NCBI GenBank assembly: GCA_963733035.1
Contig: CAVTBU010000006.1
Span: forward strand, 672,001 to 736,000
From: Pirellulales bacterium
GTDB taxonomy: Bacteria > Planctomycetota > Planctomycetia > Pirellulales > PALSA-1355
Direction: 5' to 3'
DNA: 64,000 nt
In this document: one piece after another, positions 43,070-51,215 of the stretch
How positions within the stretch are numbered: the first letter of the stretch is position 1
Layout: the number at the start of each line of letters is the position of its first letter
Made by a program: the position numbers and the translations under genes
The notes under the pieces: generated by a model
The model's database searches: none
Told to the model about the DNA's origin: nothing
Seen by the model: only the letters and a program-made list of their open reading frames with translations

Positions 43070-43622
43070 CGTTCGTCCGTGCCTGATAGCTTAGTGAAGG
43101 GGATCCATCCACATTCCCAATCGTCGCGATCGAGGCGGTGAACGGAATAAATCCACCGTGAGCGACTCTACGACCTAAGCGGGGGGGGCATACAGCCGAC
43201 AAATCTTCACTTGTTTGCCACACCGGAAATCTATGTAGAGTTTTCCGTGTTTTCGCACGCGGACCGTTTTCTTATGCGAGAAATCACGCGCTTTGCGCTT
43301 GCGTCTTGCGTTGGCCATACAAGCAGCTGTTGCCATGCGGCCCCCGTATTGGAAGTCGGGTAATAACGGTGTGACCGTCCTTACCGCCCACCGACAAGCA
43401 TTCTGCTCGTCCCCTAGCGCATCTTGCCTAGGCGCTGCCCCTCCCGCAATTAGCATAAAACCCATGCGGTTACTGGGTTAATTGGGCAACTTGGGTAGCG
43501 CATGGGACGTTCGAGTCCGTCTTCAACGGCGGCTCTTGGCACCACGGCAGAACTGAGAAGAGGCCGTGCGGCGAGCGGACACCACGAAGTGCGCCACTGC
43601 ATCCTATTCCAAAGGCCACTCT

Positions 43623-46600
43623 ATGCATTGGTTGAAGCTGCTTGGGCCGCCGCGCGGTCGTAAAGCGCCGGCGCTACGCAAACACGCATTGGACCTCCAG
43701 TTCGAAACCCTCGAACAACGACGAGTCCTCTCGATTGATCCGGTGGCTGTTGTCGCGCCCGAGACGGTTAGTCCTGATCCGGTTGTGGTGCCCTTGGCCG
43801 TTGCCGACCAGAGCATCCAGAGTTCGTGGCAAGCTGATTCGACCAGCACCCTGTCCGTTTCCGAGCACACTGGCGAAAAGCCACAATCCAAAGTGTGGAC
43901 CTATGATGGCGAGTGGTTCGCCGTGCTGCCGAATTCGACGGGCACCTGGATCTGGCGACTCGACAATGGTGCCTGGACTCCCGTTTTGGAGTTGTCCAGT
44001 TCGAACACGTACCACGCCGACGTCAAACCGACGGGCAACATAACACACGTGCTGCTGTTCGACGGCGGCATTACGCAGTTGGCCAGCGTTCAATACGTGG
44101 CGGCGACCCATTCGTACGAGTTCTGGTCGCAGCGTCCTGACAACGTGGGCATCGCGCTGCCCGGTTCCACGGAAACGGCGACCATCGACATCGACTCGCA
44201 AGGCCGCATGTGGTTGGCCTACGACAACAAGTCGGCGCACACCGTCGAAGTCCGCTATAGCGACGGCGACTACGGAAGCTGGAGCGGTCCGATCACCGTT
44301 GCATCAGGACTCGCAACTGACGATATCTCGGCCATTGTCGCAATGAGTACTGGACAGATTGGTGTCTTCTGGTCGAACCAGAACACGCGCCGATTCGGAT
44401 TCCGGACGCACGACGATGGTGCTGATCCGAACCAGTGGAACGCTTTTGAAGTGCCCGCCGATCAATCGGCGTTAAACATCGGGCACGGCATGGCCGACGA
44501 CCACATGCATTTGGTGTGCGGCTCGGACGGGACGATATACGCGGCCGTCAAAACCGGCTACGACAGCTCCAAGGCCACGGAAATCGGGCTCTTGGTGCGG
44601 CATCCCGACGGAACCTGGGATCCACTGTATGACGTTGCTCCGGTGGGAACTCGCCCGATCGTGGTCCTTAACGAACAGTTGGGCAGCGTCCTCGTCGCCT
44701 ACACCGAGCAAGATGCCGGCGGCAAGATTCTCTATCGTGAAACGTCGACTAGTTCGATTTCTTTCGGCCCGGCGCAAGTGTTGATCAGCGGTGCCACTTA
44801 CAACAACGTCACCAGTACCAAGCAGACGTTCACCGACCAGATCCTATTTGTTGCGGCCACCAGTTCCAAAGTGGCCGGCACATTGCTGATCAATCCGGAA
44901 GCCACCCCATCGGCACCTGTCACAAATCAGCCGCCGCAGGTCAGTGCCGGACCCGACCTCTCGACGCAGCTTGGCACCCCCGTCGCCCTGAACGCCTCTG
45001 CTAGCGATGACGGCGAGCCAAGCGGCACCTTGACGCTGCAATGGATCATGGTCAGCGGTCCAGGTTCGGCCTTCTTCGGCAATACGAACGTCGCCTCTAC
45101 CAATGTCACCTTCAGCGCGGCCGGTACCTATGTGCTGCGGTTAACTGCCTCAGACGGTACCTTGGCGGCCAGCGACGACGTGACGGTGACCGTGACAACT
45201 AGCGCTCCGGCGAACCAGGCCCCCAGTGTCCAGGCAGGCTCGGACCTGGCCGGTGCGACGGGCACCCCAATCCAATTGGCTGGAGCCATCACCGACGACG
45301 GATTGCCGACCGGAACGCTCACGTCCCAGTGGACGCTACTCAGCGGGCCTGGTCTGGTCAATTTCGCAGACGCCAATGCCGCCAGCACAACAGCGACGTT
45401 CAGCGTGGCGGGCAGTTACGTATTGCGATTGACGGCTTCGGACGGGGCCTTGAGTTCGAGCGATGACGTGACAGTCACCGTAACCACGGCCACCTCGCCC
45501 GGCATCGTCGGTTTTTGGAACTTCCTAAAGGGCATTGGGGCGGGGTACCCGAGTGAGATCGGCGACTTGGGAAGCTTGCAGGGGGGAGCTACCGTTAGCA
45601 CCGATGGCCGGCTGAACCTCAATGGCTCCGGGCAGCAATACGTTGTGCCTGACATGCCCGAGTTGCAAATCTCGAATGCCATCACCATTACCGCCTGGAT
45701 TAAACCCAGTACCGGTGGGACCCAGTATATTGTCAAGAAGGCATCTAGCAACTCGACTGACGGGTTTGAACTGGGCTTGAGCAACAGCGGCACCGTATTT
45801 GTGCGCTTTAATCAAGCGAGTTCTGGCAACAGCTACCGTATCGACTCTTCGTCCAAGTATCCGACCAATGGCAATACTTGGATGCACGTGGCGGCGACCT
45901 ATGATGGCTCAACAATTCGGCTGTACATCAACGGCCAGGAACAGGCAAGCCAGGCAGCCAAGTTTACCATTGCCACGAACAATTTGCCCTTGAGCCTTGG
46001 CTCAGGTGACAGTGGCAGTCGCACAATGCAAGGTCAGCTTGACGAAGTGTTGGTTACCGACCGAGCACTTTCGGCGGCGGAGGTCTCGCAGGTGTATTCC
46101 GGCGGGTTCCATCCGACGCCACCGTCGGCGCCGGTCAACCAACCGCCCAGCGTCAGCGCGGGTTCGGATCAGTCAACCCAAGTGGGCGTTAGTTTCAATC
46201 TTAGCGGTTCGGTTGCCGACGACGGTCAGCCGTCGGGCTCGCTCTTGAGCAATTGGAGCGTGGTCAGCGGACCAGGCGCGGTCAGCTTCGGAAACGCGGC
46301 ATCGCCAACGAGCCTCGTCACGTTCAGCGCAGCGGGCACCTACGTCCTGCGGCTAACAGCTTCGGACGGCGACCTCAGCTCGAGCGACGACGTTACCTTC
46401 GTCGTAGCCGCGGCAAGCTCGCCAGGCATTGTTGGCTTTTGGAACTTCAAGTCGGGCTTTGGAGCCGGATACCCCAGCGAGATTGGCGACCAGGGAAGCC
46501 TGCAAGGGGGGGCCACGGTCACCAGTAACGGCCGTCTTAACCTGAACGGCTCGGGACAAAGCTACGTCGTGCCAGACGTTCCGCAATTGCAGATTGCCGA

Positions 46601-47969
46601 TGCGATCACGATTACGGCCTGGATCAAGCCCAGCGCCAGCGGGTCGCAAACCGTGATCAGCAAGGCAAGCAGCAACACGACCGACGGCTTTGAACTGGGG
46701 CTAAGTGCCAGCGGCACGGTCTTCGTCCGCTTCAATCAGGCGAGTTCGGGAGACAGCTATCGCGTTGACTCAACATCGAGCTATCCGACGAGCGGAAACA
46801 ACTGGATGCACGTCGCCGCGACCTACGACGGTTCCACGATTCGTCTCTACATCAACGGCCAGCAGCAGGCCAGCTTGGCCGCTTCGATCACAATCGGCAC
46901 AAACAATCTGCCGCTGACATTTGGTTCAGACGCCGGCGGTGCGAATTCGATGGCGGGGCAACTCGACGAAGTGTTGATCACGGATCGCGCGCTCACGGCC
47001 TTTGAGATCTCGCAGGTGTACGTCGGCGGGTTCAATCCCACTTCCCCGTCAAGCGTCAATCAACCGCCAACCGTCAGTGCCGGGCCTGACTTGAGTGGAC
47101 AAACCGGAGTGTCCATCTCACTCAACGGTCTTGCGACCGACGACGGACAACCCTCGGGTGTCTTGCTATCGCAGTGGACCGCGGTGAGCGGCCCCGGTTC
47201 CGTCGATTTTGGCGACGCAAGCGCGGTAAGTACGACGGCGACTTTCAGTACGGCAGGCACCTACGTTTTGCGGCTGACGGCTTCGGATGGGGCATTGAGT
47301 TCGAGCGACGACGTAACGGTCGAGGTGACCTCGTCCAGCTCGCCGGGCCTCGTTGGCTTCTGGAACTTTAAGCAGGGTATTGGGGCGGGGTATGCCAGCG
47401 AGATCGGTGATCAGGGGAGTTTGCAAGGCGGCGCCACCGTAACCAGTAACGGCCGCCTCAATCTGAACGGCTCGGGACAGAGCTACGTCGTACCGGACGG
47501 TCCCCAGTTGCAGATCGCCGACGCGATTACGATCACCGCCTGGATCAAGCCCAGCGCCAGCGGATCGCAAACCATCGTCAGCAAGGCAGGCAGCAATACG
47601 ACCGACGGATTTGAACTGGGATTAAGCGCCAGCGGCACGGTCTTCGTCCGCTTCAACCAAGCCAGTTCAGGAGACACGTATCGTGTCGATTCGTCGTCAA
47701 GCTATCCCACCGACGGCAACACTTGGCTGCACGTGGCGGCGACTTATGACGGTTCCACAATCCGACTCTACATTAACGGCCAGGAGCAGGCGAGCCAGAC
47801 GGGTGCGTTTTCCATCGGTACAAATAGCCTCCCGCTGACATTCGGCGCTGATGCCAACGGTGCCAACTCAATGGTGGGACAGCTCGACGAAGTGCTAATC
47901 ACCGACCGGGCTTTGTCGGCCTCCGAGATTTCAAAGGTGTACACCGGCGGGTTCAATCCCACGCCGTGA
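43623..47969 (+). CDS. Large extracellular protein: planctomycete export motif, beta-propeller-like domain, 4 PKD/Ig-like and 3 LamG/ConA-like domains
   Basis: LQFETLEQRRVLS N-terminal motif; NQPPxVSAG...GTYVLRLTASDG...DDVTV x4; ITITAWIKP...WMHVAATYDGSTIRLYING...GQLDEV x3. Confidence 0.9.
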   Translation: MHWLKLLGPPRGRKAPALRKHALDLQFETLEQRRVLSIDPVAVVAPETVSPDPVVVPLAVADQSIQSSWQADSTSTLSVSEHTGEKPQSKVWTYDGEWFAVLPNSTGTWIWRLDNGAWTPVLELSSSNTYHADVKPTGNITHVLLFDGGITQLASVQYVAATHSYEFWSQRPDNVGIALPGSTETATIDIDSQGRMWLAYDNKSAHTVEVRYSDGDYGSWSGPITVASGLATDDISAIVAMSTGQIGVFWSNQNTRRFGFRTHDDGADPNQWNAFEVPADQSALNIGHGMADDHMHLVCGSDGTIYAAVKTGYDSSKATEIGLLVRHPDGTWDPLYDVAPVGTRPIVVLNEQLGSVLVAYTEQDAGGKILYRETSTSSISFGPAQVLISGATYNNVTSTKQTFTDQILFVAATSSKVAGTLLINPEATPSAPVTNQPPQVSAGPDLSTQLGTPVALNASASDDGEPSGTLTLQWIMVSGPGSAFFGNTNVASTNVTFSAAGTYVLRLTASDGTLAASDDVTVTVTTSAPANQAPSVQAGSDLAGATGTPIQLAGAITDDGLPTGTLTSQWTLLSGPGLVNFADANAASTTATFSVAGSYVLRLTASDGALSSSDDVTVTVTTATSPGIVGFWNFLKGIGAGYPSEIGDLGSLQGGATVSTDGRLNLNGSGQQYVVPDMPELQISNAITITAWIKPSTGGTQYIVKKASSNSTDGFELGLSNSGTVFVRFNQASSGNSYRIDSSSKYPTNGNTWMHVAATYDGSTIRLYINGQEQASQAAKFTIATNNLPLSLGSGDSGSRTMQGQLDEVLVTDRALSAAEVSQVYSGGFHPTPPSAPVNQPPSVSAGSDQSTQVGVSFNLSGSVADDGQPSGSLLSNWSVVSGPGAVSFGNAASPTSLVTFSAAGTYVLRLTASDGDLSSSDDVTFVVAAASSPGIVGFWNFKSGFGAGYPSEIGDQGSLQGGATVTSNGRLNLNGSGQSYVVPDVPQLQIADAITITAWIKPSASGSQTVISKASSNTTDGFELGLSASGTVFVRFNQASSGDSYRVDSTSSYPTSGNNWMHVAATYDGSTIRLYINGQQQASLAASITIGTNNLPLTFGSDAGGANSMAGQLDEVLITDRALTAFEISQVYVGGFNPTSPSSVNQPPTVSAGPDLSGQTGVSISLNGLATDDGQPSGVLLSQWTAVSGPGSVDFGDASAVSTTATFSTAGTYVLRLTASDGALSSSDDVTVEVTSSSSPGLVGFWNFKQGIGAGYASEIGDQGSLQGGATVTSNGRLNLNGSGQSYVVPDGPQLQIADAITITAWIKPSASGSQTIVSKAGSNTTDGFELGLSASGTVFVRFNQASSGDTYRVDSSSSYPTDGNTWLHVAATYDGSTIRLYINGQEQASQTGAFSIGTNSLPLTFGADANGANSMVGQLDEVLITDRALSASEISKVYTGGFNPTP
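45213..47966 (+). repeat. Three tandem ~921-924 bp intragenic repeats (PKD-like + LamG unit)
   Basis: Units start near 45213, 46137 and 47058. Long near-identical DNA stretches between units 2 and 3, e.g. tggatcaagcccagcgccagcgg. Confidence 0.85.
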
Positions 47970-48003: not shown

Positions 48004-50295
48004 CTACGCCGCTCGACGGACCTCGGCTGAGGCGCGCACGGGCTGATCTCGCTGGCGACGCACGTTCCAGGCATGGATGCACCGCCGTAGATAGTATCGT
48101 ACCCGTCGTGGCCAATAGCGATGCGGCCGCAGCGCGACATAGGCCGTCCGCTTGACGTGCTGGAGCCATCGCGGATCATTCAACAGACTTTCCAGCGACA
48201 GACCCGTGTACGGCAACCAATTCCGGCGATAGTTCTTGGCACCACCGGACGGCAAGTCGCCGGCGAAATCAATCGGACAGCCGGCGATGTCATAGCTATC
48301 GCGGAAAGTAGCAGGTTGTTGTTCATAGTGATGCAGGAATTCGAAGTCGATTAATTTCAGACCCTGCTGCCGATCGATCAGGACGTTGTCGATGCTGGCA
48401 TCGATTAGGGCGTAGCCCGCCTCGTAAACGCAGCGAATCGCTCCGATCGCCTCCTGTGCCACGTCGATCGGCAGTAACCGTCCACTCGAACGATCATAGC
48501 GAAGCACATCATCGTAGAACGGATAAACGACGGTGCGCTCGCTGGATTCAAGTAGCGGGGGAACTTGTGGCACCTGCGGTGCGAGATCTCGCATCGCGTG
48601 TTCTTCGCGGCGGCAAAATCGCTCGCAGCCGAGTTTGAACGACTTGCGCACTGCGAGTCGCCCGTGGTATTTGATCAGCTCAATCTTGGTACGACGCCCA
48701 AACCGTGTCAGGTCCTGAAGTACCGGAGCGTCGTTTGAGCTGTCAGCGTTCCAGGAGTCCAGTCGGCGCCGGATCTCGCCCTCGCCTTCAGGCATTGCCA
48801 AGGCGATATACTCCCAGGCTTCGGTGCCGTTGTCGCTTGAATGCAGCGCGTTGCAATGTTCTTCGACAGGGAGCCCCTGATTGAACGCATCGCGAATCCG
48901 TCCCTTCTCCAACACGCGGGCATTGGTGGCCAACGGAAACTTCTTCCGCTGCCGGCGCGTCAACGGCTGCGGTTGCGGGTCGAACGCCACGACCACGGCC
49001 GCGGGAGGTCCTCCAGAAACCGCCCACGGTCCGCGGCCCCAATTGCCACCGCGAATGTTGGCGGCCACGTGGCGCAATTCCGCGTCGGAGAGCATTTTGA
49101 TTTTCAGAATTGAAAAACCAAGGTCTTCCAATAGTGGCACAAGCTTATCAAGACCGCCACGGTTCATTGCCTCGCTTCGGAGGATGAAAGTCACCAGACC
49201 CCGATCCTCCGGACGCTCGAGGTCGTCGTGCAGCGACTGGCGGATCCAGCGATTGCGTTTCCCCAATCGCAAAAGCATGTCGCGCGGCGGTTGCCAGTCA
49301 TGTTCGGCTAGAAACACGTCGAGACCCTCGCGAGTGACGTCCAGTGGTGTCCCAAGCTTGTTCGCCAGGCTCGACAGAATCGTGCGGTAGTCGTGATCGT
49401 GCGATCGTTCGCGACGCACCGGAGCGGCAGCCGACTTGGGGATGCCAGAGGATGGACCCTTGTGGTAAACGGCGTGATAAGCCAAGCTCAGCAGGTGCTG
49501 ATCAGGACGAGGTACGCGGCAGACTCCGTTGTGCGGCACGGCGCCGTCGAGGAGTTCCTTGGCCAGCCGAGGCGGAAAATACGGCATCTTGCGAAAGTCC
49601 GACCGGGGCAGACCGGTCTCGGAATAGATGTCACAGGGCTGAACGCCGGGGCCGTCCTCGAGTATCGCCAAGACCGCTTCCAGATGCTTGTCGTCGACGA
49701 GCAAGTCGAGGTCCTCTCCAGGCGGCAATTCGGGCAGCGATTCGAACCATCGTAGCACGACATGTCGCAGATCAGCATCCCGTAGTCGTTGCAGAAAGCC
49801 GGTCAAGCCGAGATTAAAAGGTACGTAGTGCCGGGCGCCGCTGGGCAGACGTCGACGTCGTACGGGATAGACGAGCAGGCAATCGTTACCATCGTCCGTG
49901 AGCGCCACGCGTTGTGCCGTCGACAGGTTTCCCAGCAGGACATGACACCAGCAGACCAGCCGGACCATTAGCAGCATGGGGTGCAAGCGGCCGCTGACGG
50001 CTACAAACTGAGCATGTCTCAGGTTGCGAAACCGGACCGCGCCCAACGCTGCGCGGCCGCCAACGATAAGCACCTCGGCATTATTTTCGCGGAGCGCGTT
50101 TCGCCGCACGGACACTGTCGCATGTGATTGCAGAGCGGGGTGTTCGGAAACGATCCGCGCGCATTGTTGCCGCGAGTTGGCGATGCACAGGTAGCGGTCA
50201 TATCCGGCGGCCAAGAGTCGCTCGCCCAGCGGTTGGCGGCCGGCGAAAACCTCGATGAACCTCGTGGTGGGTTCCCACCTGTCACGTGCGGGCAT
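48004..50295 (-). CDS. Multidomain hypothetical protein: nucleotidyltransferase-like, nucleoside-diphosphate-kinase-like and protein-kinase-like domains
   Basis: VVLRW...GEDLDLLVDD; TFILRSEA..RG...LEDLGFSILKIKML...GGP...IRDAF...NALHSSDN..EA; AVRK...REE...D...NVLID...LKLIDFEF. Confidence 0.65.
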   Translation of the reverse strand: MPARDRWEPTTRFIEVFAGRQPLGERLLAAGYDRYLCIANSRQQCARIVSEHPALQSHATVSVRRNALRENNAEVLIVGGRAALGAVRFRNLRHAQFVAVSGRLHPMLLMVRLVCWCHVLLGNLSTAQRVALTDDGNDCLLVYPVRRRRLPSGARHYVPFNLGLTGFLQRLRDADLRHVVLRWFESLPELPPGEDLDLLVDDKHLEAVLAILEDGPGVQPCDIYSETGLPRSDFRKMPYFPPRLAKELLDGAVPHNGVCRVPRPDQHLLSLAYHAVYHKGPSSGIPKSAAAPVRRERSHDHDYRTILSSLANKLGTPLDVTREGLDVFLAEHDWQPPRDMLLRLGKRNRWIRQSLHDDLERPEDRGLVTFILRSEAMNRGGLDKLVPLLEDLGFSILKIKMLSDAELRHVAANIRGGNWGRGPWAVSGGPPAAVVVAFDPQPQPLTRRQRKKFPLATNARVLEKGRIRDAFNQGLPVEEHCNALHSSDNGTEAWEYIALAMPEGEGEIRRRLDSWNADSSNDAPVLQDLTRFGRRTKIELIKYHGRLAVRKSFKLGCERFCRREEHAMRDLAPQVPQVPPLLESSERTVVYPFYDDVLRYDRSSGRLLPIDVAQEAIGAIRCVYEAGYALIDASIDNVLIDRQQGLKLIDFEFLHHYEQQPATFRDSYDIAGCPIDFAGDLPSGGAKNYRRNWLPYTGLSLESLLNDPRWLQHVKRTAYVALRPHRYWPRRVRYYLRRCIHAWNVRRQRDQPVRASAEVRRAA

Positions 50296-50333
50296 CCGTT
50301 TCCTCGCTGCTTGCGGCCGTTCTGTGCCGGCGT

Positions 50334-51215
50334 TTAGGCTGCCCTATTCTTCGCTTCGCGACGACCCCATTGTGCCTCGCTTGCCGCATCGCCGCCGAAA
50401 GCAATCACTTCGATTGTGCGATCGCTCGATTCCGCTTCGGGGTCGGGCTGCAACTTTGCGTGCTGCAATTCCCACAGCCGGGCTTGTTTCATGAACGTGT
50501 AAAATGCCGTGTAGGCGCAGATGTGAAAACCCGGCATGCCGTCCAAGAAGCCCAGCCGCAGAATGTACAACTGCAGAAATCGCAACGGGGCACGAAACAC
50601 CATTGACAACAGACTGACGCGCTGTCCTTCGTCGCGTAGATTGAGCGCTCCCCATGAGGCGTAGCGATTCATCTTCCGCCAGTACTCGTCGGAGCTCCAG
50701 GTCGTGTAGTGATCGAACGGATGCTTGAGCCGCCGGACGCGCGACGGATCCATTTGTATCTCGGCATGTACCCAGCGTTCGCGATAGCGCCCGATGTCGC
50801 GGCGAAAAAGCCGCAACACGTCGTCGCTTCCCCAGCCGCAGTGGGCGATATGGTAGCCAAGAAAATGGTTCTTGCGTCCAATCCAGTAGCCGTCGATGTC
50901 GTCACTCGGCTTGTCAAGCAACAGGCGAATCTCTGCGGCCAACTGCGGTGTTACTCGCTCGTCGGCGTCGACGATGATTACCCAAGGATGTTGAGCCTGC
51001 GGGATCGCCCAGTTCTTGAAGTTGGCCGAATGCACATAATCCCGTTGAATGATACGGCAGCCGCCCATTTTGCGCACGATGTCCAGCGTGCCGTCGGTCG
51101 AACCGCTGTCCGCGACGAGAATCTCGTCGGCGATCGGCCGCACGGACTCAATGCAGGGTCGGATATTGTATCGTTCATTCTTGCAGGGAATCAGGGCCGT
51201 TAACTTTGTCTTCAT
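50334..51215 (-). CDS. Glycosyltransferase family 2 (WaaE/KdtX-like)
   Basis: IPCKNE, VADSGSTDGT, KNWA, VDADERV, VHAE, Y.LRLGFLDG..G. Confidence 0.92.
   Translation of the reverse strand: MKTKLTALIPCKNERYNIRPCIESVRPIADEILVADSGSTDGTLDIVRKMGGCRIIQRDYVHSANFKNWAIPQAQHPWVIIVDADERVTPQLAAEIRLLLDKPSDDIDGYWIGRKNHFLGYHIAHCGWGSDDVLRLFRRDIGRYRERWVHAEIQMDPSRVRRLKHPFDHYTTWSSDEYWRKMNRYASWGALNLRDEGQRVSLLSMVFRAPLRFLQLYILRLGFLDGMPGFHICAYTAFYTFMKQARLWELQHAKLQPDPEAESSDRTIEVIAFGGDAASEAQWGRREAKNRAA

Follow-up and report, generated by a model that had tools for sequence, protein, structure and literature searches.

Several described systems pair a kinase with a nucleotidyltransferase (NTase) in the service of a glycan transferase, among them LicA/LicC/LicD, HldE, FKP and GlmU. 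Compact kinase-like folds with catalytic Lys, Glu, Asp, Asn and Asp residues are found in the WaaP/Kdo, WbdD and RIO kinases; characterised WaaP/Kdo kinases phosphorylate sugars of a lipid-linked glycan, and WbdD joins its kinase to a Rossmann-type domain. The minimal DNA polymerase beta (pol-beta)-type NTases include ANT(2'') and LnuA, both of which nucleotidylate sugar-like hydroxyls, and the members of PF14907 (NTP_transf_5, "uncharacterised nucleotidyltransferase") are proteins of ~400 amino acids. A gene within a 64,000-nucleotide stretch of contig CAVTBU010000006.1 from a Pirellulales bacterium (the window, meaning the whole stretch that was analysed) encodes a protein, P0001, in which a kinase-like domain with the same five catalytic residues and an NTase-fold domain are accompanied by a nucleoside diphosphate kinase (NDK)-like domain. 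The loci of P0001 and its relatives share with LicA/LicC/LicD, HldE, FKP and GlmU the combination of a kinase and a nucleotidyltransferase that serve a glycan transferase; an NDK domain is present in none of these systems, nor in the PF14907 members. An earlier note on this DNA, made from the letters alone, had explained the gene by the logic of LicA/C/D. This holds as an analogy only, since the NTase of P0001 is of the pol-beta type and differs from the donor-making fold of the LicC/RmlA type, and P0001 contains no NTP_transferase match.

P0001 belongs to a large unnamed family of conserved enzymes. Tentatively, we favour the reading that it is a cytoplasmic glycan-tailoring enzyme that works with the family 2 glycosyltransferase (GT2, P0002) encoded upstream and acts on the acceptor side, probably on an envelope glycan, which would probably still be lipid-linked at the inner membrane face. 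A word-indexed search matched 110 further proteins to P0001, and an exhaustive HMMER search of 1.84 billion representatives identified 1166 cluster representatives at E ≤ 1e-3 (541 at E ≤ 1e-30). All source names within the family read "hypothetical protein" and none is functional. The family is spread over at least eight phyla, with members in the Planctomycetota, Gemmatimonadota, Cyanobacteria, Actinomycetota, Bacillota, Gamma- and Alphaproteobacteria and one spirochaete. When one genome was scanned for each species, homologues turned up at 179 places, 79 of which were retained as loci. P0001 is single-copy in its own genome and its core is patchy within the phylum (3 out of 201 sampled genomes match at E ≤ 1e-10, its own genome counted). 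The possibility raised earlier that the open reading frame (ORF) is an assembly chimera is ruled out because the same architecture occurs in complete genomes of isolates and in many independent assemblies.

P0001 alone matched no Pfam or NCBIfam family at threshold in whole-protein scans; weak similarities below threshold pointed to NDK (E 0.052), to Pkinase (0.22) and to the NCBIfam entry LanKC (lanthipeptide synthetase kinase part, 5.9e-4). A comparison of the NTase and NDK core with the Atlas returned only clusters named "hypothetical protein" that have no Pfam family in common. No description of the architecture or of an NDK-NTase fusion was found in the full-text literature (most subscription journals lie outside its scope), and a term search of a classification of NTase folds (PMC2794190) found neither NDK nor "diphosphate kinase". 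The folds are known; what appears to be new is the architecture of P0001 and the involvement of an NDK-type domain in glycan synthesis, and the earlier impression of an undescribed architecture thus stands as far as the Pfam and NCBIfam thresholds and the literature search reach.

The full-length AlphaFold2 model of P0001 (111 sequences) has a predicted local distance difference test score (pLDDT) of 94.9 and a predicted template modelling score (pTM) of 0.88, and a model of residues 140-520 (140 sequences) reaches 95.5 and 0.91, respectively. On the strength of the confident full-length model, four domains are predicted to pack into one body: an N-terminal domain, the NTase-fold domain, the NDK-like domain and the kinase-like domain. 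The earlier note had proposed a fusion of three domains based on a GEDLDLLVDD motif of the NTase type, an NDK-like segment with its phospho-His kept and a C-terminal kinase-like fold with an LIDFE motif. All three domains are present, and the predicted structure contains both the NTase and the NDK fold; the fourth, N-terminal domain (residues 1-150) had been overlooked. The family comprises forms of ~760 amino acids with all four domains, ~620 amino acids without the N-terminal domain, ~535 amino acids without the kinase and ~400 amino acids with only NTase and NDK. NTase and NDK make up the constant core, to which the kinase, the N-terminal domain or both may be added. The kinase had been taken as part of a single polypeptide, which holds for P0001 itself and fails for the ~535- and ~400-amino-acid forms. 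Longer relatives carry N-terminal additions, namely a Wzx-type flippase (Polysacc_synt_3, 1.2e-36), a GT4, a TPR region with a GT41, a TPR region alone or a histidine phosphatase. In the alignment of 140 core sequences, no columns other than H274, R468 and H485 are invariant. Judged from their alignments, three of the P0001 domains have complete and conserved catalytic sets and their active sites look intact.

The assignment of the NDK-like domain is supported by structure and by profile. All matches listed by Foldseek for the model of the domain are NDKs (probability 0.99-1.00, best E 3.2e-4), and VIA-align superimposes the domain on the NDK 1xqi with Z 9.6 and a root mean square deviation of 3.4 over 122 residues. 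A profile of the segment matched 64 sequences in the PDB at E ≤ 1, and the NDK family accounts for 59 of the best 60 listed, the best match (1.4e-4) covering the whole domain. In Pfam, 14 out of 47 family members match NDK (PF00334) at E ≤ 0.05 (best 8.7e-5), and P0001 itself scores 13.9 bits, below the gathering cut-off of 27. HMMER alignment to a solved NDK places H485 at the catalytic His, within the N-x-x-H-S-S-D segment, R373 at the Lys of the first strand, W419 at the first Phe of P-F-F, T457-N458 in the T-D/N-P segment and R468 at the Arg of the T-I-R segment. R373, W419, T457/N458, R468 and N482 occupy positions which we take to be those that bind the nucleotide phosphates or stack against the base in NDKs. 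H485, whose conservation had been named as a check, is unchanged in the 140, 111 and 64 sequences of the three alignments, and the invariant residues of the 64-sequence alignment of the domain are F370, R373, R415, G417, W419, K464, R468, N482 and H485. An invariant Gly-rich loop (RGGNWGRGPW in P0001, RGGNWGxGPW in the family) lies where ordinary NDKs form a helix hairpin. The domain shares the fold of PF00334 but, unlike it, is never free-standing in the P0001 family and always follows the NTase. The genome contains a separate canonical ndk gene (E 2e-49), so the domain in P0001 is an extra, specialised copy.

The NTase-fold domain contains a pol-beta-type core and a helical subdomain. Its nearest solved folds according to VIA-align, matched over residues ~160-345 of P0001, are MenT1 (Z 7.4), ANT(2'') 4xje (6.5), TM1012 (6.4), LnuA (5.5) and 4ok0 (5.3); the matches span Z 7.4-5.0 and model residues 21-206, include MenT4 and, among the listed neighbours, TglT, and fall in a range (Z 5-7.4) that the program itself rates as middling. 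ANT(2''), LnuA, TM1012 and MenT1 have the DxD and a third carboxylate in common with P0001. D195, D197, D222, H274, H278 and K279 do not vary in alignments of 47 and of 65 sequences, and neither does D197 in one of 111. In the full-length model D195 and D197 belong to strand 196-200 and D222 to strand 217-225, so that the features of the pol-beta superfamily (the NTase fold, a strand with the DxD and, on the strand beside it, a third carboxylate) are found together in the predicted structure, and the GEDLDLLVDD motif is confirmed as part of an NTase-type fold. A profile of the domain found nothing meaningful among PDB sequences, and P0001 thus differs from the minimal pol-beta NTases by the lack of detectable sequence similarity to any PDB chain; its context is furthermore neither one of resistance nor one of toxin-antitoxin pairs.

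The Pfam family closest to this domain is PF14907. Among the 65 NTase-domain members, 41 match it at E ≤ 1 (best 5.8e-4), all below the cut-off, and P0001 scores 12.8 bits against a gathering threshold of 31.2. Genuine PF14907 domains occur in 56 out of 151 genomes of the same phylum, and an hhalign comparison with 20 of them gave a probability of 75.6% and E 2.4e-5 over 149 columns, and aligned the D-L-D-L-L-V strand, with the invariant D-x-D of PF14907, and the His-bearing helix. The domain is read as a distant homologue of PF14907 and not as a member. FKRP and LicD are not among the best 50 VIA-align rows for the core, a result that does not exclude a relationship.

The kinase-like domain matched protein kinases in the PDB at 5.3e-9 with a family profile, and its nearest VIA-align neighbours are Rio1 (Z 14.0), Rio2 (13.9) and the lanthipeptide-synthetase kinase CurKC (12.5), with Bud32 and PknB also near. 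The protein-kinase-like fold is accompanied by the beta3 Lys, the alphaC Glu, the catalytic Asp and Asn and the metal-binding Asp, and these residues are kept in most of the 96 sequences that have the domain (K551 in 96, E564 in 94, D632 in 92, N637 in 87 and D650, within the LIDFE motif, in 95). The domain in P0001 lies below all Pfam thresholds. In an alphaproteobacterial metagenome-assembled genome (MAG) the kinase domain is a separate 369-amino-acid ORF just 3' of the P0001 homologue (L067:9580-10689, plus strand) that is 33% identical to the kinase domain of P0001 (E 1.7e-32). A natural split or a frameshift would account for this arrangement.

In the model of the N-terminal domain, strands alternate with helices in a Rossmann-type order. 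N71, N72, and A73 are unchanged in 33 out of 33 sequences. No significant match was found in the PDB (by profile), in Pfam (for each of 33 members) or in the Atlas, one of the 33 members giving a weak hit to Methyltransf_16 (0.0061), and no recognisable S-adenosylmethionine-binding motif was found in the 33-sequence alignment, the PDB or Pfam. The domain is missing from the ~620- and ~400-amino-acid forms.

The genomic context of the family was surveyed in 66 fetched loci and the window (67 in total); the ORFs within 5 kb of a homologue yielded 485 proteins, which were clustered by BLAST and the representatives compared with Pfam. The P0001 family is embedded in glycan loci. In the window the GT2 gene ends 38 bp before the start codon of P0001 on the same strand. 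The GT2 cluster of P0002 is found in 26 out of 67 loci, and orthologues of P0002, which at 58-79% identity are more conserved than P0001, were identified in 19 of the fetched loci; in 14 of these the orthologue immediately precedes the P0001 homologue on the same strand, no more than 200 bp away. A second GT2 cluster is present in 21 out of 67 loci, and the other neighbours include GT4, GT61, Wzx flippases, an RmlA-type NTP_transferase, DegT, epimerases, an ABC exporter and a methyltransferase. The link to surface glycans that had been drawn from the GT2 38 bp upstream is backed by these conserved neighbours and by the natural fusions. In three Steroidobacteraceae-type loci, the gene that directly follows a core-only form encodes LicD or a LicD-GT2 fusion. 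Two such loci with LicD (L061 and L073) also have a lactate/malate-dehydrogenase-family gene divergently upstream of the core-only form and a major facilitator superfamily (MFS) transporter nearby, neighbours that may hint at the head-group that is made.

The kinase also occurs on a different protein. In 10 out of 21 planctomycete loci with a kinase-less homologue, a Kdo/WaaP-kinase-GT2 protein of ~570 amino acids is encoded within 5 kb; no such protein was found in the 32 loci where BLAST detects a fused kinase, nor in the 13 remaining loci. Its C-terminal half is a GT2 paralogue with 28-38% identity to P0002, and its N-terminal half matches PF06293 at 1e-7 to 1e-12 in the four out of ten proteins scanned, all ten sharing the domain by BLAST (41-75% identity). 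Because the Kdo-GT2 fusions are found only beside kinase-less forms, it seems that the kinase activity is needed by the system and may sit on either protein. The kinase had earlier been assigned a substrate after the model of LicA; the Kdo/WaaP-GT2 proteins of the kinase-less loci point to a glycan acceptor at least as strongly as to a free precursor.

In the window, the pair of GT2 and P0001 is bordered by a convergent LamG/PKD gene on one side and by divergent unrelated genes on the other, and neither a LicD gene nor a further sugar-nucleotide gene lies beside it. A complex prediction for P0001 residues 1-522 with the GT2 scored 0.00, which weighs neither for nor against binding. On the far side of the LamG/PKD gene lies a large polysaccharide synthesis and export cluster that contains two Poly_export/SLBB genes, a P-loop ATPase, Bac_transf, a polysaccharide deacetylase, Wzy_C, GT2, GT4, an epimerase, WecG/TagA and several ORFs without a family. 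The coordinates of these and other features are collected in table 1.

Table 1. Positions of P0001, its domains and motifs, and neighbouring features in the window, with natural fusions of relatives
Feature	Position	Strand	Details
P0001 gene	48004..50295	-	One uninterrupted ORF, 763 amino acids, four-domain enzyme
GAGGAA ribosome-binding-like hexamer	50300..50305	-	4 nt 5' of the P0001 ATG, read from sequence
N-terminal alpha/beta (Rossmann-like) domain	49846..50295	-	Residues 1-150, pLDDT >93, optional
Pol-beta-type NTase-fold domain with helical subdomain	49228..49833	-	Residues ~155-356
GEDLDLLVDD, predicted metal-binding DxD strand (D195, D197)	49690..49719	-	Residues 193-202
NDK-fold domain	48751..49212	-	Residues ~362-515
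His485 codon, predicted phospho-histidine	48841..48843	-	H of NALHSSDN
Compact protein-kinase-like domain	48046..48738	-	Residues ~520-750
LIDFE kinase motif	end at 48340	-	Residues 648-652, translation
C-terminal RRAA tail of P0001	48007..48018	-	Translation
Partner GT2 (P0002), first gene of the pair	50334..51215	-	293 amino acids, Pfam GT2 1.2e-16
R-x-A-A tail of GT2 (P0002)	50337-50348	-	Translation
Giant LamG/PKD protein (P0003), convergent	43566..47969	+	1467 amino acids, Pfam Laminin_G_3, PKD
P0003 N-terminal module (~360 amino acids)	~43821-44915	+	Residues 85-450, BLAST
Large polysaccharide synthesis/export cluster	21558-43069	-	LamG/PKD gene between the cluster and the GT2-P0001 pair
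Natural fusions of P0001 relatives			P0185, Wzx flippase; P0236, GT4; P0237, TPR-GT41

For an enzyme on the acceptor side, the following sequence of steps is proposed. The GT2 would add a sugar to the glycan, and the kinase domain would phosphorylate a hydroxyl of a glycan sugar in a WaaP/Kdo-like reaction. The PF14907-like NTase-fold domain would then bind a Mg-nucleotide via its DxD and use either a nucleoside triphosphate (NTP) or a sugar linked to a nucleoside diphosphate (NDP), by which the phosphate would become a phosphodiester or a nucleotide-activated phosphate. Finally, the NDK-like domain would cycle phosphate via His485, either making the NTP that is consumed or clearing the NDP left by the NTase-fold domain and the GT2. 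We propose that the NDK domain is always fused to the NTase because it would supply this NTP or remove this NDP. The obligate fusion thus suggests that NTP is consumed or NDP released next door, which argues against a LicD-like chemistry, with its release of nucleoside monophosphate, for the NTase-fold domain. The fusion of a relative to a Wzx flippase fits an enzyme that acts on a lipid-linked unit.

An experimental precedent for an NTase that elaborates a kinase-made phosphate, and by analogy support for this acceptor-side scheme, comes from the pseudomycoidin lasso-peptide cluster. PsmN, an uncharacterised NTase, is reported to be needed for the addition of 1-2 hexoses to a phosphate installed by the kinase PsmK, and PsmN was modelled on the ANT(2'') structures 4xje and 5cfs and depends on two Asp (PMC6993621; PMC11912497). 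The structure 4xje is both a template for PsmN and a top structural neighbour of the P0001 NTase domain, and PsmN resembles the latter in being ANT(2'')-like and in acting after a kinase; PsmK, an HprK-type kinase, is unlike the protein-kinase-like domain of P0001, and the target of PsmK and PsmN is a peptide.

Several observations weigh against an acceptor-side enzyme of this kind. The order of the reactions, the nucleotide and the acceptor are ones that we infer, and the structural matches that tie the NTase domain to ANT(2'') have middling Z values. The membership of PsmN in PF14907 is not established, the paper giving no Pfam accession. P0001 has no match to PF06293 (WaaP/Kdo), among 47 members a single one matched (1.4e-4), and by its predicted structure the fused kinase fold is nearest to the RIO and lanthipeptide-synthetase kinases and not specifically to WaaP. 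The test of the kinase distribution (Fisher, 10/21 versus 0/32, p = 1.8e-5) overstates the association since the planctomycete genomes are related. Furthermore, the LicD genes beside the core-only forms fit a core that supplies a donor at least as well.

The main rival is activation of a donor along the LicA/LicC-like lines of the earlier note, which we regard as possible but doubtful. The kinase would phosphorylate a free sugar or small head-group (X), the NTase would condense X-phosphate and an NTP into NDP-X, the NDK would regenerate that NTP from NDP and ATP and recycle the NDP left by the transferase, and a GT2 or, in other lineages, LicD would pass X or P-X on to the glycan. The product of the NDK would then be the substrate of the NTase, the simplest reason for an obligate fusion, and the two-gene cassette of GT2 and P0001 would be self-sufficient in the window. 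The three loci with LicD or LicD-GT2 directly downstream of a core-only form agree with it, as do the matches of some family members to the APH family, which includes anomeric sugar kinases. A parallel is offered by a family of phosphonate clusters in which Ppm is reported to be flanked by a thymidylate kinase and a PF14907 NTase (PMC8942020). The firmicute loci, however, already have an RmlA-type NTP_transferase next to the P0001 homologue, and the fusion of a relative to a Wzx flippase and the WaaP/Kdo-kinase-GT2 proteins are a better fit to the acceptor side. We also know of no pol-beta-fold enzyme that makes NDP-sugars or CDP-alcohols, the known makers being of the RmlA/LicC, cytidylyltransferase and HIT types, so that the fold itself speaks against the synthesis of a donor.

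The LamG/PKD protein encoded next to P0001 (P0003) raises the question of a protein target. Its cluster is present in 15 out of 67 loci. The N-terminal module of P0003, which has no Pfam or PDB match, was identified by BLAST in 12 proteins neighbouring P0001 homologues, nine of them planctomycete (51-63% identity) and the other three (26-45%) in an Actinotalea locus, an actinomycete MAG and a Gemmatimonadetes MAG, which suggests that the module and the P0001 family are functionally linked across phyla. The kinase could act on Ser/Thr of such a protein, and the NTase-fold domain and GT2 could build a sugar there; PsmK and PsmN would be a precedent, and the kinase fold has its nearest neighbours among kinases of proteins and peptides (RIO, class III lanthipeptide synthetase and PknB). 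We nevertheless consider phosphoglycosylation of a protein or peptide improbable: no signal peptide was seen in P0001 whereas the LamG protein looks exported, no LamG neighbour lies within 5 kb in 52 out of 67 loci, and the links to flippases and lipopolysaccharide kinases indicate glycans.

Slimmer still are the chances of a regulatory role, in which the NTase would make a nucleotide signal from NTP supplied by the NDK and so control the GT2 or glycan export. Cyclases and oligonucleotide synthases are found among the pol-beta NTases, and P0001 adjoins a GT2, but the NTase domain has as its structural neighbours enzymes that modify small molecules or tRNA (ANT, LnuA, MenT) and not cyclases or CD-NTases, no receptor or effector domain was seen, and the fusion partners are biosynthetic enzymes. 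That P0001 is a MenT/AbiEii-like toxin or defence NTase placed in glycan loci by chance is very improbable: MenT1 is the best structural neighbour of the NTase domain and TglT and MenT4 are also listed, but at middling Z values, no antitoxin-like partner was seen, the 763-amino-acid multi-enzyme has a conserved GT2 partner, and the glycan contexts are constant across phyla.

P0001 and the GT2 both end in R-x-A-A. Among the 110 homologues from the word search, 58 end in RAA and 83 in AA, and the tail is common to four protein families of the planctomycete loci (L002-L052). The GT2 and Kdo-kinase-GT2 cluster ends in AA in 25 out of 32 proteins, and the second, downstream GT2 cluster ends in RAA in four out of five; the background of AA ends in the own genome is 76 out of 4090 long ORFs. 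Homologues from other phyla have the tail in 7 out of 138 cases only. It may be a common recognition or degradation tag. A genome-wide glycan tag is ruled out, as the 18 RAA-ending ORFs outside the window that were scanned (20 in the genome) have mixed functions and include an integrase, RF-1, a response regulator, MMPL, MFS, an LpxA-like protein, PEP-CTERM, two GT4 and an ABC ATPase.

A search of sequencing runs gave only small shares (≤0.19). A metatranscriptome library from sediment includes a 184-nt contig identical to positions 48899-49082, but such a library may also contain DNA, so that transcription is not shown. Short pieces identical to the window were also found in soil and sludge DNA runs.

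With three apparently active domains, the P0001 family extends over many phyla and lies in the envelope-polysaccharide loci of planctomycetes, cyanobacteria, actinobacteria, firmicutes and others. A far-reaching interpretation, which we regard as unlikely as a whole, is that the NTase-NDK core is a new and widespread system (>1000 clusters in at least eight phyla) for phosphate-bridged decorations. A phospho-histidine NDK-fold domain would have been recruited to the phosphoglycosylation of glycans or proteins, His485 would directly supply or remove the nucleotide of the adjoining PF14907-like site and not serve the general NTP pool, the targets might include the co-conserved LamG/PKD protein, and R-x-A-A would be a common recognition tag. 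The domain swaps within the family, with the kinase on P0001 or on a second GT2 and with GT2 or LicD as the partner, are natural experiments. If P0001 does act in a glycan pathway, identification of its product would be likely to uncover either a new kind of phosphate-linked glycan decoration or a new way of making an activated donor. The poorly understood NTases of the PF14907 and PsmN type would then gain a function, and P0001 would contain the first dedicated NDK-type domain known within a glycan pathway.

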